Of a DNA stretch of 64,000 nucleotides, positions 503 through 58,706 are shown in pieces. The DNA is from a virus. Its lineage: Duplodnaviria; Caudoviricetes. The position numbers and the translations under genes were made by a program. Below the pieces are notes generated by a model. That model made no database searches, had not been told where the DNA came from, and saw only the letters and a program-made list of their open reading frames with translations. Where the stretch lies: positions 96,001 to 160,000 of IMG/VR virus record IMGVR_UViG_3300037249_001405; one strand, 5' to 3'. Numbering within the stretch: the first letter of the stretch is position 1; each line of letters begins with the position of its first letter.

Positions 503-515
503 AAAAAAATACAAT

Positions 516-1226
516 GACGTGCTGGTAAGGGAAAGATCTAAAAAATCCAACCCCAAATACGGCATCTTGAATTAACGGAATGTGGGTACGGCCTGGCGTA
601 GGCTCCTTTATAAAAGCTGTACACTAAGACCTGACGGGGTAACTAATAAATCAAATATATGTAGACTTATCTCTCACACCTAGTGCAGGGTAGCGTGAGA
701 ACTTATCTAGTCTCCGTGAGAATGTAAGTCCCAGCCCTACACTGGAGTGGAGCTGTTCTATAACCCGGGTTATAGGTGATATTACTAATCACGTAAGTTG
801 ATTTTTTATTATTTCGGAGATCTCAATAAATTTATGACTAAATATAATCTCGAAAGGGTTTCCAACAATCTCAAAAAAGATTGTAAGTGAATAAAAGGCG
901 ATGTCGGTTGTAATTAATCATGCCGAGATACCCCATTTTGAATCCAGGAGAATAAGAGATTGTATTGTATTGATCATAATAAGTTCAGTAGAGTCTATAA
1001 AGCTCGAGATTACTTGCTGATTATTGAGATTCGTGTCTATTTCGCTTACTCGTGTAGTTAGTGAAAGTCACTTATTCAGTAAAAGTGTCGGGTGGCTATC
1101 ACGGTAAATAACAGGTCCTAAATGGAATGTCTGATACCGATAAAAAATAAAGGAAAGTTATTTGCGCGATTACCCCTTTATTTGGTAGTCCCTGTATTTG
1201 GTGCTAATAACACATATCAGCATGTC
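516..1226 (+). ncRNA. Large ornate ncRNA candidate (711 nt, ROOL/GOLLD size class) upstream of tRNA-Arg
   Basis: No ORF >=60 aa; 12-bp 5'/3' closing helix 516-527/1215-1226; nested long-range helices 553-562/1192-1201, 636-642/1170-1176, 820-829/1021-1030, 845-853/1004-1012. Confidence 0.7.
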
Positions 1227-1244
1227 TGCGTATTTATTATAAAA

Positions 1245-1398: not shown

Positions 1399-3225
1399 AT
1401 GGAAAATAATCAAAATCAATTAAATCTATTTCAAAAGTTATTCGGTATTTTTATGTCTGGTGTTAATAGCCGTATACCAATTAGAAGTAATATTTATAAT
1501 AGAAAAGGTTATTCAGCTATTGGCTCTACCGGTAATAAATTATTTGAGGTAGATAGAAAGTCACCGTTATTAGGTAATGCTAATGCATCTAATTTAATTT
1601 CGGGTTATTATGAAAGGGTACTTGAATTGAAGGGTTATCAATTGCTTGATATAACGAAGTTAGCTACAAACTTCTTTTCTGATTATATCGTGAACTTTTT
1701 ATCTGATGAAGGTGGTGGTAGTCAGATTGTTTCTATTATGAACGAAGATGGTACTAATAACCAGCAAGTAACTGATCGTATCAATCAAATTTTAACAAAA
1801 GATATTAAAATATTTGATTATATTAGAAATCATATACAGGATTTTGTATTCTATGGCCAATACTATTCTATGCTTGTTTCAAGTAGAGATGAGACCGGAC
1901 ACACAAAGTTTAGAATAGAAGAGTTGGTTGACCCTGTATCTGTTATTCAGAAGAAAAAAAGAAAAACGGATGGAAGTGGTGAGATGGAAGAGTTATATTT
2001 AGCTAAGGGTGAAGGTGGTATTATTGTAGAAATACCTAAGAAAGAAATCATATATTTAGCTAACCATGATCTTCGACTCTTGAATGACCTCGCAGACAAA
2101 GTGGAGTATAATAGTGGTCTTAGAGCGAGAAAAGATAAGAATGATCCACTGACTAGCTTCTTGAAACCGGAGTCTAGTAACGGTAAACCTAAACACTATA
2201 CTCCTAATTTTCAAGACAATAAGAAGATTATTTTAAAGGATGGAGTATCAGTAATAGATCCAAAAGAAGGTAAAGCCAATAGAGACAGAGTACTCATCAA
2301 AGAATCCTATACTACATCAGAGCCACTATTCTACTCTTTACTATTGAAGGTAAAGGAGTTAGTTATTAAGGAGTTGCTAGTATCGTTGATTTCTTTACGT
2401 GATTTGTCTAGTGTTCAGATATTCTTGTTACAATTTGATAAGAATATTCCTCTAGAAGCTGCAACTGAACTCTGTAAAAGGGCAGCTAAATTGACTAATA
2501 ATACAAATGATTTAGCTAGTTTCTTGACATCTCAGTTTGATGTTATATCATTTATTGAGAATACTTTAACTCAAGGTACTAAATTTGTACCTGATTACGG
2601 CGGATCTTTATCTGCAAAAAACCCTATGCTTCCGCTTGATAAGTTAAGTGACAAGTATATAGAAATTATGCAAACATTGGATCAATGTAGGGCAGCTATA
2701 TTAGGTCCACTAGGTTTGCCTGTTACGTTAACAGATTCTACATCTGGCTCAAAATGGCAAGTATTGCAGCAATCTGAACGTGCTAATTCAAGAGTTGCTA
2801 GTTTCTTAGATGGTATAAAGAGTTCTGTTACTGATTTAATATGTAATCTTTATGAAATCATTTACTCAGATAAATTAGATCCTAGTTTAGTTAAGTTACA
2901 TATTAGTGAAAAGACTTCAGTTGAATATAACAACCAGATTAACCAATCAGAATCTATTAACGGTCTTCTTCAGAGCATTAATAATATCCTTCAGGGAGCA
3001 TTACAAATGCTTGATATGGGAGCTCCTTATCTTGATCCAAAGAATTATCTGACTTACATTCAGAATTTGATTAGAGATATTGACCCGAATACGGAGAGTA
3101 TAATTAATGAAAAATCTATTGAACTATACTTGCAAGTGGTTAATGCTAAACTTGCTCAACAGTTTGAACAGTATGGACTAGATCCTTCAATACTTCAACA
3201 AGACGATAATCAACAACAGCAATAA
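1399..3225 (+). CDS. Putative portal protein, divergent T4 gp20-like
   Basis: 608 aa. Motifs in portal order: QDFVFYGQYY (cf. WYVDG), IFLLQFDKNIPLEAATELCK (cf. IFYIDVGNLPK.KAE.Y), RAAILGPLGLP (cf. LY.AL.VP), then helical C-terminus. Confidence 0.55.
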   Translation: MENNQNQLNLFQKLFGIFMSGVNSRIPIRSNIYNRKGYSAIGSTGNKLFEVDRKSPLLGNANASNLISGYYERVLELKGYQLLDITKLATNFFSDYIVNFLSDEGGGSQIVSIMNEDGTNNQQVTDRINQILTKDIKIFDYIRNHIQDFVFYGQYYSMLVSSRDETGHTKFRIEELVDPVSVIQKKKRKTDGSGEMEELYLAKGEGGIIVEIPKKEIIYLANHDLRLLNDLADKVEYNSGLRARKDKNDPLTSFLKPESSNGKPKHYTPNFQDNKKIILKDGVSVIDPKEGKANRDRVLIKESYTTSEPLFYSLLLKVKELVIKELLVSLISLRDLSSVQIFLLQFDKNIPLEAATELCKRAAKLTNNTNDLASFLTSQFDVISFIENTLTQGTKFVPDYGGSLSAKNPMLPLDKLSDKYIEIMQTLDQCRAAILGPLGLPVTLTDSTSGSKWQVLQQSERANSRVASFLDGIKSSVTDLICNLYEIIYSDKLDPSLVKLHISEKTSVEYNNQINQSESINGLLQSINNILQGALQMLDMGAPYLDPKNYLTYIQNLIRDIDPNTESIINEKSIELYLQVVNAKLAQQFEQYGLDPSILQQDDNQQQQ

Positions 3226-3271: not shown

Positions 3272-5596
3272 TTATTTCTCAAAATCAAATCCGTATAATT
3301 CGTTTTCTTTTATATCGAATTTGTCAATCCAATCTAACTCTGTTTCTTTAAATACGCCATTAGTTTTGTATCCTTTATAAAGAACGGATGCTGTCCAATT
3401 GAAGATTACGTCATAAACTTCATTAACATCATCTTGATTCTTAAAGAATTCTTCTGCGAAAGCGGTAGGTAATGTGTTTATAACAATACCCCTTAATTCG
3501 TATTTATCGGCTATCTTTTCTAGTGTCTGATTTAATTTGCTTATTACGTTGAAGAAGCTTTGTGTATCAGATTGAACCATATCCGTTAATACTTTTGCAT
3601 AATCTGAATTAAAGCAACCAGATGTGTAGTTCAGACTTTCGTAACACATATTCACGATGTAATCAAACGATATGTTAGACAAATCACCAAAGATTAAATT
3701 TAGAAACTGTAGTGTTTGTGTAGTGTAATTATAAAAATCCGTGCTTTGACTTATTTTTGATTGTTTAAACTTAGTTGTGGGTGAAGGCGGATTTTTTGTT
3801 AGATTATCTAATATAGCTTTTAGGTCTTTTATATTAGATATTCCTGAAATCTGATATTGAGAAGTTGCTGAATTAAGCCTCTCCGTTACAGCGAGAGTTC
3901 TGAAGAATATCATACTTGTTGCTATGTGAATAGTATTCTTTAAAGAATTTAAAATAGCTTTCTTTATATCTGGGTTTTTATTATAAACCTCAGGTGTAAC
4001 CCAAGCTAATAATGGTAAACCATAGCTACAAAATGGCTTTAATCTTCTATTTATATTAATAGTGCTATCTTCAGATATTTTAAATTCTTGTCCGTTATTG
4101 CGAAATTCTTCAATAGTTTTTTCAGTAATTTTATTAAAGAAATCATCGATTACAAAATCACTTCCATCAAATAATTCACCTAAATCAATCAATGGAAGTT
4201 GAGGTTCCATTTCTGAATTGAGAATAGTTATAAGTGATGATGAATGTATTGAGTAATGACCGCTCTCATCCAAATCTTTTTGATAGAAATAATTAGGATG
4301 AAGGGTGTTTTGACATTTCTTATTAATTACATCAATTAATTCTGGTATAAACGTATCGGTTACGTAATTAACAAACTTGTCTTTTGTATTTAACTTATCT
4401 TCTTCTATTGCGTAAATTCCAGAATTATTATTGTCAAATTTAGCTAATTGACCTAAATTATAAAATATATGAACGGCTGTTTTTTTAGATAAACCACAAC
4501 CAGATCCTCCAGAAGCAATCGTTCTAGATTTTCTATTAGTCATTGATTCTGGTAATCTATAAAGAATAGAAGTACCTAATGCACAACTATTTTTATCCCC
4601 GTATTTGTAGCCACTCTTTTCATCAAAAACAAAATCAGGTTTATCCTTAACAATTACTTTTCCTAGATAAACAGCTTGAGCTTCAGCATTAAAGCCTTTT
4701 GGATCTTTAACGTAAGAACCGGTTATTTTTGATGGTATGGTATATATATGACCTATAACTAAATCATCTAGGTTTGTTATAAAATTACTTCTATCTAATA
4801 TTCTTTCACTCTTTTTTAGTATTCTACTAAAGTCAGAAATTTTAGACAATCTTTTAAATTCAGATTCACTAATGACACTATAGTAATAATCTTTCAGATT
4901 AAAAAGAGTTAATTGAGTTTCTCTATATCTATCATGAACGTATACAGCAGATGCTGAGACGTTAGACTTTTTATAGAATCTAAAACTTTCTGTGCATTTT
5001 CCACCTGAAATTAACGACGTATTATAAATTACATCATTAATATTACAAGAGCTAAATATTACAGCGGATTTTCTCTTTATTCCATTAGATATTGTTGTAT
5101 CTAAATCTTTTAGATCATTACAATCAATTTCTAGTAATAAAGCCTCTTCCATCCACGTCTCATATAAATATTCTTTATTAAAATTCGGAATATTTAATTT
5201 AATATTTTCATTTTTAATTTCTTTTACTGTTAGCAAATCTGGTAAATTAGAATTCTTTTTAAGAAATTCTTTTCCATTAATACTAACGTAAGTCACACCA
5301 CAGCCTCTAAGAAGAATTGAAATAATTTTTTCTATATTCTTACTTAAGTTAGAGTACTGTACTTCATCCATTATTAATCCGGGAGTATAATAAATATTAT
5401 CTCTATCATTAGATGGATGAGTCAGGGAAAAACCTGAAAAAATATTCTTTTTATTGGAAACCCCGTTTTTGTTATCACACATGATTTCTATAACTTTATC
5501 AAACCAAAGATCTGATATAGTTACGTAATATAATTTACTGGGGAACATGTCAAATTCCCCAGTAATCGTATTTGTTAACTTAGAAATTCTGCGCAT
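3272..5596 (-). CDS. Large hypothetical protein (774 aa)
   Basis: Long ORF; shares a GHIY...YLG motif with its neighbour. Confidence 0.85.
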   Translation of the reverse strand: MRRISKLTNTITGEFDMFPSKLYYVTISDLWFDKVIEIMCDNKNGVSNKKNIFSGFSLTHPSNDRDNIYYTPGLIMDEVQYSNLSKNIEKIISILLRGCGVTYVSINGKEFLKKNSNLPDLLTVKEIKNENIKLNIPNFNKEYLYETWMEEALLLEIDCNDLKDLDTTISNGIKRKSAVIFSSCNINDVIYNTSLISGGKCTESFRFYKKSNVSASAVYVHDRYRETQLTLFNLKDYYYSVISESEFKRLSKISDFSRILKKSERILDRSNFITNLDDLVIGHIYTIPSKITGSYVKDPKGFNAEAQAVYLGKVIVKDKPDFVFDEKSGYKYGDKNSCALGTSILYRLPESMTNRKSRTIASGGSGCGLSKKTAVHIFYNLGQLAKFDNNNSGIYAIEEDKLNTKDKFVNYVTDTFIPELIDVINKKCQNTLHPNYFYQKDLDESGHYSIHSSSLITILNSEMEPQLPLIDLGELFDGSDFVIDDFFNKITEKTIEEFRNNGQEFKISEDSTININRRLKPFCSYGLPLLAWVTPEVYNKNPDIKKAILNSLKNTIHIATSMIFFRTLAVTERLNSATSQYQISGISNIKDLKAILDNLTKNPPSPTTKFKQSKISQSTDFYNYTTQTLQFLNLIFGDLSNISFDYIVNMCYESLNYTSGCFNSDYAKVLTDMVQSDTQSFFNVISKLNQTLEKIADKYELRGIVINTLPTAFAEEFFKNQDDVNEVYDVIFNWTASVLYKGYKTNGVFKETELDWIDKFDIKENELYGFDFEK

Positions 5597-23852: not shown

Positions 23853-24660
23853 AAAAAAAAACAACCCTGAGACTGTCGGGTTGTAATGAGTTCATTCACC
23901 AAGGTTGGCCTCGGTACGTCACACGCATATTTCTACACGTAGAGCTCAATGGCAGTTTGATAAGGTTCAAACCTAAACCTTTACTTTCATGCTAATAATT
24001 TCACCTTTCGCACCTAGTCGCCCTGGAAAGGCGTGCAGGAGATCCCTCCCCTTACCATGATGTTAATCCGCTACTCTTCAGCTACTTTCCTTGCGGTACT
24101 CGTAACTGCCCCCATTTTGCAGAGGGATAAGCCATTTTTCGCATAAAAGTGTGGTCACACTTTTGCTTTTTAAAGGAAATTCATTAATTTTCTTTTTTGT
24201 GTTTCCGGAAATAGCCATCCGGTAGCGGCAGTGAGAGTGTGGTGACCACTTTTTGTAGTTCTCTCCCTTTTGAGGAAAGCCCACTACGACACTCTCTAAG
24301 ACGACCTTTTGCATCAGTCATCTCTTTAACAGCATCTTATCAAGTTTGGTTAGTTTACTTGATCTCAACTGTTAATGATACACGCACTTGGTTGCTTATG
24401 CCTCGTACATAGTATCTCCGTGATTGTAAGAGCTATTTCTAACTCTTGCTCCCATTTCAGGAAGCTACACCCATCTTTTCGAACTCTTTGGGGATTCGAA
24501 CCTTCCCCAGATGAATGCAGTCATCATCGTTCCCTTCAATAGCTAGCTATTTTCATAACTAGTGGTGATCCTTGCCGGGGCCACCATTTATGCCCATTGC
24601 TGGGTTTATCCTTTGATTCAGTCGCTGAGGGCACGGCTGCCAGAATGTTTCCACTCTGGT
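23853..24660 (-). ncRNA. GOLLD-like giant structured RNA (~800 nt)
   Basis: GC-richer, ORF-poor tract right after two tRNAs. Many GNRA-capped stems on the minus strand (CCAGAGTG-GAAA-CATTCTGG, AAGAGTTA-GAAA-TAGCTCTT, TACGTGTA-GAAA-TATGCGTG). Loop-E-like CAGTTAC-GAGTA-CC-GCAA-GG-AAA-GTAGCTG. Terminal ACAACCC-GACAGTCTCA-GGGTTGT + T-run. Confidence 0.7.
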
Positions 24661-33437: not shown

Positions 33438-33866
33438 ATGGCAACACCAAAAAACACAGCTGCTGAAGAAGCAGCAAAGAAGGCAGCAGTAGAGGCAGCT
33501 GCCGCAGCAGCAGCAACAACACAAGCACAAAACGCAGCAGCTTCCACAGCAGCTCCAGTAGCAGTAGCAACAACCACACCCGCTACCCCTGCAGCTCCTG
33601 CAGAACCAGCTAAGAAGGCCCCGTTCTACAAACGACCTGGCTTTTGGCTCGGAGTCACTGGCGTAGTAGCCATCGCAACCGCTTTTGGTGCTGGTTACAA
33701 GCGCGGCGTAAAAGCTGGCCGCGAGGCAGCCAACGCAGAGGAGGAGGAAGACAAGATCGCCAGCGCAATTGGCGCAGGCATCGCCTGCGCCAATGACCAC
33801 AACAGTGGTAATGGTGGCAACTCCAACTCTGGCATCAACAGCCGTGACAACAACCGTCGCGGTTAA
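33438..33866 (+). CDS. Ala/Pro-rich single-pass membrane protein
   Basis: Ala-rich N-terminus, TM FWLGVTGVVAIATAFGAGY; strongly biased C-rich codons. Confidence 0.75.
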   Translation: MATPKNTAAEEAAKKAAVEAAAAAAATTQAQNAAASTAAPVAVATTTPATPAAPAEPAKKAPFYKRPGFWLGVTGVVAIATAFGAGYKRGVKAGREAANAEEEEDKIASAIGAGIACANDHNSGNGGNSNSGINSRDNNRRG

Positions 33867-57167: not shown

Positions 57168-58706
57168 TTAATTGTTTTTCTCCATTCCCTCTTTATCCTT
57201 CCAATTAATGGCAGGATAATATCTTTCTATTTCATTTACTGTATTACCAAAGATCACATCTTCTATCTCGAGTGTATCTTTGTATGCCATAGGTGACTCA
57301 TCGATGGTCTTTTTTGTTACTGATGTAGTCACAATACCCTCCATCTCTTTCTCGAATGAAGACATGGAGAACTTAAGAATTTCATTAATCTCGTCATCTG
57401 AGAGATTACCAAAATCCTTTTCATACTTAGCCAATATGGTTAAGTTCTCATCGGAGAAGTCCAAATCAGATTCGTACTCCTCCTTTAATTTGAGGTATTC
57501 TTGGAGTTGTTCTGCCAACTCCAACCTCCTGTCGGCTTCCTTTCTGGACATGATACGTCCGGCACCATGTGGCGCCGAATTACCCCATTCAGGATTACCT
57601 AGACCTTCAGCTATTACAACACCATCCTTCATTGAGAACGGGATAATAACTATTTCGCCCTGTCTTGCTCTGATAGAAGACTTCCTCAATGTTCTATCCT
57701 CAAGATCAACGAAATTATGTGTAGTAAATATAGTATCAACAACGCGGACACTATACTTACTTAAAATATCCGTTATGATCTTTTGAACAGTTATGTGATT
57801 GTACCTTGCATAAAGCTGTGCAAAGCACATATCCTGGAGATAACCTTTCATATTATCTCCCTTCAGATAACCATTCATGAATCCTTCTTCAAGCTTCTCG
57901 AACTCTGCCGAGAGATACTTGTTTAATTCATCCTTAAAGAACTTCATGTCCTTTCCTTCGGCCTTATATTTAGCCTTGAAAGAATCAGTAAGTTCCTTTT
58001 CTTTCTCTTTCCTTTCTTTCTTAGAAAGAGGGTTATTTGAAATGTTCTTCCAGTAAGTAGCTACAGCAAGACCAAATCTTCTTGATCCAAAGTGAAGGAA
58101 GAAAGCAGCTTTCTTCTTATCCTTTGTCAAATCATACTCCAGAAAGTGGTTTCCGCCACCTACTGTTCCGAGTGATTTCCAAAAGACACCTGGATCAAAG
58201 TTATTAATACGTTTAAGAAACGCATTAATCCAGTCTTCCGATACACGTACAGGAAGATCACCTAACATTTCAGGCCAAAGTTGCCTGTATTTGTTAAATT
58301 CCTTTGTTATGAATTTACAAAATTCATCAGTTTTCACCTTTGAATTTTCATGAAGGTGAAATCCCATAGGTACCTGTTGAGATACCTTATGTTCAAACTC
58401 GATAAGCTTGTCTTCAGAGACAGGTTTATCGAGAATCATACCAGATACAGTACAACCTATATCTACTCCGATGTGGAGTGGGTTAATATAGTTGCCAATA
58501 GTTGCAGAAAGGCCACAAGGACCTGCTGCACCTACGTGAGCATCTGCCATAAGATAAACCGATTGGCCCTCAAAGGCTTTCGAGTTTATGATGTCGTCAA
58601 CCTGTTCCAGCACACCTGGGTCATAGGTCCTTATATACGCTTTACAAGTAGCGTATTTTCCCTTTTTTACGAGAGGGAGGGGACCATCGTAATATAAATT
58701 TGCCAT
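57168..58706 (-). CDS. rtcB: RtcB RNA ligase
   Basis: DAHVG, GVDIGC, LGTVGGGNHF, HFGSR, HNF, SAPHGAGR, DESPMAYK. Confidence 0.93.
   Translation of the reverse strand: MANLYYDGPLPLVKKGKYATCKAYIRTYDPGVLEQVDDIINSKAFEGQSVYLMADAHVGAAGPCGLSATIGNYINPLHIGVDIGCTVSGMILDKPVSEDKLIEFEHKVSQQVPMGFHLHENSKVKTDEFCKFITKEFNKYRQLWPEMLGDLPVRVSEDWINAFLKRINNFDPGVFWKSLGTVGGGNHFLEYDLTKDKKKAAFFLHFGSRRFGLAVATYWKNISNNPLSKKERKEKEKELTDSFKAKYKAEGKDMKFFKDELNKYLSAEFEKLEEGFMNGYLKGDNMKGYLQDMCFAQLYARYNHITVQKIITDILSKYSVRVVDTIFTTHNFVDLEDRTLRKSSIRARQGEIVIIPFSMKDGVVIAEGLGNPEWGNSAPHGAGRIMSRKEADRRLELAEQLQEYLKLKEEYESDLDFSDENLTILAKYEKDFGNLSDDEINEILKFSMSSFEKEMEGIVTTSVTKKTIDESPMAYKDTLEIEDVIFGNTVNEIERYYPAINWKDKEGMEKNN

Follow-up and report, generated by a model that had tools for sequence, protein, structure and literature searches.

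A large non-coding RNA in a rumen phage tRNA cluster, probably a remodelled relative of RNAs framed by the 23S GTPase-associated centre

A closed RNA at the end of a phage tRNA cluster

What kind of molecule is encoded by a long stretch of phage DNA that lies among tRNA genes and has no convincing gene of its own, and what might it do for the phage? The stretch (positions 516-1226, + strand) belongs to a window of 64,000 nt, the whole of the DNA analysed here, which is part of a 210-kb virus record that is 56% complete. An earlier note on this DNA had described it as a large, closed, multi-domain plus-strand RNA, either of the ROOL class or of a new class. The tRNA cluster comprises ~19 genes on the same strand, with the RNA tract at its 3' end, and tRNA-Arg(UCU) (1245-1319, +) starts at 1245, 18 nt after the tract ends at 1226, as the earlier note had reported. 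The only ORFs overlapping the tract are short and probably spurious (1122-1283, +; 434-565, -).

Downstream of tRNA-Arg lies the gene for a 608-aa protein (1399-3225, +); jumbo phage contigs encode at least 373 relatives of it, and Pfam and PHROG gave no match. Because these relatives sit on contigs of up to ~400 kb, we place the virus in a rumen jumbo phage clade; near-identical DNA is present in gut sequencing runs from cattle, sheep and goat. At two related loci (denoted by L numbers here), an IS605-type TnpB gene, whole or fragmentary, is found between tRNA-Arg and the 608-aa gene (L063:5182-6381 and L109:2666-2905). The RNA is preceded by an A-run (497-510, +), which in relatives directly follows the upstream tRNA-Pro or tRNA-His. 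We considered and rejected a sigma-70-like promoter at 486-515, since such sites occur at chance frequency and relatives have a tRNA at that place; its -35 element is also weakened by a 490 C>G change in three variants.

Compared with shuffled sequences, folding of the tract gave z scores of -2.8 on the plus strand and -2.4 on the minus strand, and of -4.1 for the interval 505-1240. An outer helix (508-512/1230-1234) lengthens the element slightly past 516 and 1226, and we define the whole RNA as 508-1234 (+) with a core at 516-1226. Folding and the syntenic homologues described below bear out the large closed RNA that had been proposed. The six long-range pairings named in the earlier note are all present as complementarity, exactly as written, and the minimum-energy fold contains only two of them, the terminal helix 516-527/1215-1226 and 820-829/1021-1030. 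Two of the six are supported by the full analysis, one in part, and three, including a candidate pseudoknot, are unsupported. The terminal helix proved to be a stem resembling helix 42 (H42) of 23S rRNA that covaries across a family of phage RNAs, and 12-base in-register pairing with 1215-1226 occurs at only 2 of 210,256 genome positions.

The Rfam scan returned tRNA only, at both gathering and E<=10 thresholds, in agreement with the second of the earlier suggestions, a class outside the known families. Membership of the ROOL class was not upheld: the ROOL model (RF03087), which scored a true ROOL at 130.4 bits, had no match at E<=10 in the genome or the tract. Neither the conserved 3' domain of GOLLD (RF02032) nor the group I intron model (RF00028) matched the tract. 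Both models work here, as they match elsewhere in the genome: the former at 88 bits at another site in the window, the latter at 62.5 bits in the intron of a tRNA-Leu gene. None of the three models matched the RNAs of the relatives either, and neither Rfam nor ARAGORN reported RNase P, tmRNA, OLE or a group II intron in the tract. A group I core assembled by eye (714-719/1099-1104 and 1092-1098/1186-1191) was dropped as it is not kept by relatives; the P7-like helix of L063 has no bulge and no G-C site, the conserved G-binding pair of group I P7. When 50,697 phage records were searched with the tract by BLAST, nothing matched, and exact window-sequence patterns matched viral and metagenome contigs at chance level only. 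Nineteen IMG/VR relatives with a 54-61% identical downstream protein had neither an adjacent tRNA-Arg nor a DNA match, and are too distant or incomplete for the RNA to be called absent.

The GOLLD-like RNA (23864-24296, -) is a full-length RF02032 match (88.2 bits, E 4.5e-23, under the 150-bit cut-off) that follows tRNA-Pro and tRNA-Met (24971-24797) at a distance of ~500 nt, with space for a 5' domain; its presence implies two different large RNAs in one phage. The tRNA-Leu(UAA) gene of this genome (L028:7193-8033; G000 87192-88032) is split by ~753 nt that include a group I intron core (L028 7736-7977, 62.5 bits).

A phage RNA family framed by the GTPase-associated centre

The identity of the tract was approached through its relatives, whose contigs were obtained via two flanking proteins. 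Every contig spanning the slot carries a 720-810-nt non-coding stretch between tRNA-Pro or tRNA-His and tRNA-Arg(UCU), the latter being the constant downstream neighbour in every giant-subclass locus that reaches that far. The relatives' RNAs fall into five sequence types besides that of the window. Set against real Salmonella 23S rRNA, their 5' ends contain helix 43 (H43) followed by the 1082-1090 strand, and helix 44 (H44) is found at their 3' ends with the partner strand of H42. On sequence grounds, both ends together recreate the GTPase-associated centre (GAC) of 23S rRNA, comprising the top of H42, H43 and H44 and forming the uL11 site. The earlier alternative of a new large RNA class holds in that the RNA is large and lies outside Rfam, and it missed the rRNA-derived ends, which are obvious only in the relatives. 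An H43-half model from which the giant clade had been left out scored L058 at 61, L063 at 56, L110 at 52, L113 at 46 and L061 at 39 bits, and real Salmonella 23S rRNA at 48.5 bits.

Two patterns derived from the ends retrieved about two dozen more viral loci, mostly amid tRNA genes, and BLAST identified unannotated copies in five cultured phages (Pseudomonas phages pf16, UNO-G1W1 and Milchi, Xanthomonas phage XacN1 and Aeromonas phage 4_4572). The insert between the two halves is ~50-445 nt long in the wider family and 618-699 nt in the rumen giant clade, whose RNAs are the largest family members found. Across 24 non-giant members, 96% of the cells of the frame are paired and 16 of its 21 pairs show compensatory change, a result reached by 0 of 500 shuffles, with slid controls 33-56% paired. 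The family has no entry in Rfam 15 and no description in the searchable literature, in which subscription journals are thinly covered. Paenibacillus phage Pd_22F (L106, MZ092003.1, near 84 kb) contains an unannotated, apparently genuine 23S stretch, probably host contamination, and was excluded from the family set as a true 23S fragment.

Invariant in 28 members are U1060, G1071, C1072, A1077, A1084, A1085, G1087-C1102, A1088, A1095 and A1098 (E. coli numbering), together with both H44 pairs, G1091-C1100 and C1092-G1099. In 23S rRNA, U1060 and A1088 are partners in a tertiary contact of the uL11-binding domain. Positions 1071 and 1072 tie H43 to H44 in the ribosome through the tertiary contacts G1071/G1091-C1100 and C1072/C1092-G1099, and G1087-C1102 is a further contact there (PMC2952862).

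Within the giant subclass the insert has a steady length and a similar domain layout. Its hallmark is the helix 586-592/616-622 (586-622, +), which heads a small junction and, with its flanking motifs, occurs once per type at the same offset in five types, with 5 of 7 pairs compensatory. It was found in 0 of 300 shuffles, an optimistic count because the motif was defined from the same sequences, the sole independent check being its recurrence in a sixth type, L113, fetched later. The helix is absent from small family members. A multi-branch domain is predicted at 635-816 (+), and within it a perfect 18-nt palindromic hairpin (758-775) is invariant in three variants, confined to the window lineage and absent from relatives. 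The central domain (820-1030, +) is closed by 820-829/1021-1030, which has a pairing probability >0.5; L111 has U-G in place of one of its U-A pairs, and L058 and L112 form helices at comparable relative positions. This domain includes a variable hairpin (865-884), with compensatory changes at 865/884 and 867/882, and the helix 841-851/956-966. The latter, with a probability >0.5 and positional equivalents in all folded relatives, competes with 845-853/1004-1012 from the earlier note, whose G852-C1005 pair is disrupted in L111. The 3' domain (1094-1190, +), closed by 1094-1101/1183-1190 and made up of two sub-hairpins, recurs in L058, L063 and L112 at an equal relative position, 0.84/0.99 of the insert; here the proposed 636-642/1170-1176 competes with a local hairpin (1145-1183), which gains a pair from a 1156 A>G change in two variants. 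The crossing pairing 628-633/1112-1117, the candidate pseudoknot, is present as complementarity alone, and a non-exhaustive comparison gave no significant equivalent in any relative; its invariance is uninformative because the three copies compared are near-identical. The best match to the sarcin-ricin loop core in the insert was 9/13, equalled by 34 of 100 shuffles, and an 11/13 stretch in L110 (1/100 shuffles) was discounted as it is predicted within a 9-bp helix.

The remodelled ends of the window copy

In the window, the two strands of the H42-like stem (516-527 and 1215-1226, both +; 527 corresponds to E. coli 1055 and 1215 to 1104) form 12 pairs in the family register, that of the top of H42, and stand together with H43- and H44-like hairpins. 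The H43-like hairpin (529-553, +) retains the frame of three pairs, a 2x2 internal loop, two to three pairs and a 9-nt loop, a frame that is completed by a 548 C>U change in L057. Its sequence is remodelled, with A at 1060, U at 1067, and A at both 1071 and 1072. The 1082-1090 strand is reduced to a remnant (554-557, +) of 4 of the 9 nt, placed by an inferred register, in which G1087 and A1088 are absent and which could pair with 1197-1200. The insert, which follows position 1090, is closed by 558-562 (+) and 1192-1196 (+), identified by complementarity and by the family position, with the UUUG linker next. A longer helix, 553-562/1192-1201, had been proposed here; its inner segment stands, and by homology C553 belongs instead to H43 and G1201 to H44. 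The linker and H44-like hairpin (1197-1214, +; G1201-C1211, U1202-A1210, 7-nt loop) differ from the consensus by one compensatory pair and a loop that is 1 nt longer. Neither the closing helix nor H44 appears in the single-sequence minimum-energy fold.

The two halves differ in how far they can be recognised. A 3'-half model whose training set excluded the giant clade had its best window match at 1197-1216 (E 0.38 for 128 kb), and in a matrix search the 3' half ranked 2 of 420,594 genome positions. The 5' half ranked 505 of 420,558 and scored 1.4 bits for H43 and the 1082-1090 consensus, against 39-61 in relatives. As the 5' half is unrecognisable by sequence, the assignment of H43 relies on frame and position, and a H43-like frame with five H42 pairs is expected by chance ~0.09 times per 800 nt. 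A H43-like score at window position 33710 was discounted, being inside a coding frame; separately, 33438-33866 (+) encodes an Ala/Pro-rich 142-aa protein with one predicted hydrophobic stretch and a G+C content above its surroundings.

It could be argued that the window RNA shares no ancestry with the GAC-framed RNAs and has replaced them in the slot, its matches being due to chance, and the failure of the 5' half in the family model, like the failure of a profile of the other inserts to detect the window insert, fits that view. Such a replacement would leave unexplained the 3'-half match, the H42 register, the insert helix at the same offset and the equal insert length (639 nt, with predicted domains at relative positions similar to those of relatives), as well as the shared A-run and outer helix and an insert alignment to L063 with z 5.2, and we consider it the least probable of the readings weighed here. 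We regard homology of the window RNA to the GAC-framed family as very likely, and because it departs from the H43 and 1082-1090 consensus we describe it as a remodelled homologue rather than a canonical member.

The remodelling removes the bases that matter most in the ribosomal domain. U1060, G1071, C1072, G1087, A1088 and most of 1082-1090 have been lost; the uL11-domain tertiary contacts are replaced by A, A and A at 1071, 1072 and 1060, and 1087-1088 are missing. The uL11-binding fold has therefore probably gone from the window copy. The loss is most simply read as derived, since the closest relatives by downstream gene (90-91%) and by insert alignment (L063, z 5.2) are near-intact at the ends. 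L061 (3148-3181 and about 3800-3820) is an intermediate, partly eroded copy, with an H43 loop lacking 1071-1072 and an H44 loop 2 nt short. Its erosion, although its insert is close to that of the intact L113 (z 11.8), suggests repeated loss of the mimic.

The remodelled ends might instead still take up the shape of the GAC through new tertiary contacts, serving as a decoy with altered specificity for a divergent host uL11, a toxin or a factor. This would account for the exact frame lengths (9-nt H43 loop, 2x2 internal loop), the change of C1092-G1099 to U-A with G1091-C1100 retained, the near invariance of the remodelled ends within the lineage and the joint loss of U1060 and its partner A1088. 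With both 1071 and 1072 changed to A, G1087 and A1088 absent, and the window's set of changes seen in no other of the 32 family sequences, we judge this unlikely. That the window RNA no longer binds uL11 in the manner of rRNA is, from the bases it has lost, the likely outcome.

Conservation, expression and possible function

Comparison with the goat variant and another rumen variant showed that 516-851 and 1045-1226 diverge by 0-1%, against 6-7% for the flanking ORFs and 8-9% for the tRNA, the changes in the RNA being concentrated in 852-1044. The low divergence of the core could partly stem from recent recombination. The pattern bears on whether the RNA is a decaying relic, kept merely as a paired spacer that aids processing of tRNA-Arg. 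The loss of functional residues in the window, and in part in L061, and the divergence of inserts beyond recognition between types would suit a relic. A core better conserved than the neighbouring genes and tRNA, changes that are grouped in 852-1044 and some of them compensatory, and an insert of steady length in six types would not, and make decay very improbable.

RNA-library contigs from two studies (sheep and cattle) map to the tract; one, from a single study, begins at 513 and another extends into the tRNA. The flanks 200-403 and 1526-1700 are without such contigs, a contrast to which we give no weight. These contigs show neither strand, ends nor level, may hold DNA and cannot rank expression, and we take them as a weak indication that the tract is expressed.

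Sequence and covariation indicate that the phage encodes a free-standing non-coding RNA whose frame is a divided copy of the 23S GAC. Given the tRNA-flanked layout and known tRNA processing, we infer that it would be co-transcribed with the tRNA cluster and released from the precursor by tRNA processing, RNase P cleavage at 1245 giving rise to its 3' end. In most relatives the ends could fold as a uL11-binding structure, and their mimicry suggests an off-ribosome decoy that titrates uL11 or captures factors or toxins. In the window lineage the frame appears to persist as a closing clamp from which the nucleotides of the tertiary fold are gone. As the GAC bases are lost yet the core is conserved, selection may now maintain a closed scaffold together with the folded insert. 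The insert, in the weakest step of this scheme, might be a protein-binding or self-assembling body that acts on host translation during infection. A remodelled giant homologue with its function in scaffold and insert is, as a whole, the explanation that we favour, with modest confidence.

Comparison with known systems sharpens this proposal. Relatives are identical to the 23S GAC (H42-H44, E. coli 1051-1108; the uL11/thiostrepton site) at conserved positions, and the window RNA keeps the three-helix frame with its tertiary-contact bases replaced or deleted. Unlike the ribosomal domain, the phage RNA is free-standing and has a 640-nt insert interrupting it after 1090, and no Kt-42/uL10 site was recognised. 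Ribosomal-protein leader RNAs such as the L10 leader also mimic rRNA, and act in cis at the head of mRNAs from ribosomal protein genes. The phage RNA shares with them the off-ribosome imitation of a protein-binding site on rRNA, whereas its next gene is a tRNA, and the genome, 56% complete, yielded no uL11, bL12 or Ro60/TROVE gene.

The resemblance to ROOL (RF03087) is broader, covering rumen phage, tRNA cluster, paired ends, a length of 600-700 nt, a multi-junction layout and few conserved bases, and GOLLD (RF02032) is likewise a large phage RNA adjoining tRNAs. The window RNA might accordingly be an RNA-only homo-oligomer or cage of the ROOL/GOLLD kind with incidental rRNA-like ends. Its size and context agree with this, as does the retention of structure with scant sequence conservation, which also holds for ROOL (PMC5737381; Kretsch et al.), and the palindrome at 758-775 could dimerise. 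The hallmarks of ROOL are three conserved pseudoknots and an octameric RNA cage; neither the ROOL nor the GOLLD model matches the tract, conserved pseudoknots or kissing pairs were not found in a non-exhaustive comparison of the folded relatives, and the palindrome is missing from them. rRNA-like ends are not reported for ROOL (PMC5737381; Kretsch et al.), and the genome already has a separate GOLLD-like RNA. We find a cage with incidental ends distinctly unlikely, and retain the remodelled homologue as our working model.

If true, a phage copy of the uL11 and translation-factor site would be a new route to handle host translation or to absorb defences, and the compact members in cultured phages make the family testable. 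In the rumen clade, ends that are intact (L058, L063, L110 and L113), partly eroded (L061) or remodelled (window) occur naturally around an insert whose size stays steady, so that what the ribosomal mimic does can be told apart from what the insert does; selection on the body only in the window lineage, if true, implies an undiscovered activity of the insert. Through the clade, the origin of a large ornate RNA can also be traced, which is not so in the published descriptions of ROOL and GOLLD (PMC5737381; Kretsch et al.). As a tentative and still doubtful extension, ornate RNAs may be built by opening a ribosomal factor-binding domain and growing a 640-nt body inside it, the window lineage having dropped the ribosomal face to leave, under strong selection, a body that would rank with ROOL, GOLLD and OLE in having an activity of its own, whether in catalysis, assembly or protein binding.

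Elsewhere in the window, an RtcB RNA ligase gene (57168-58706, -; E 3e-44) fits an investment by the phage in tRNA and RNA repair.
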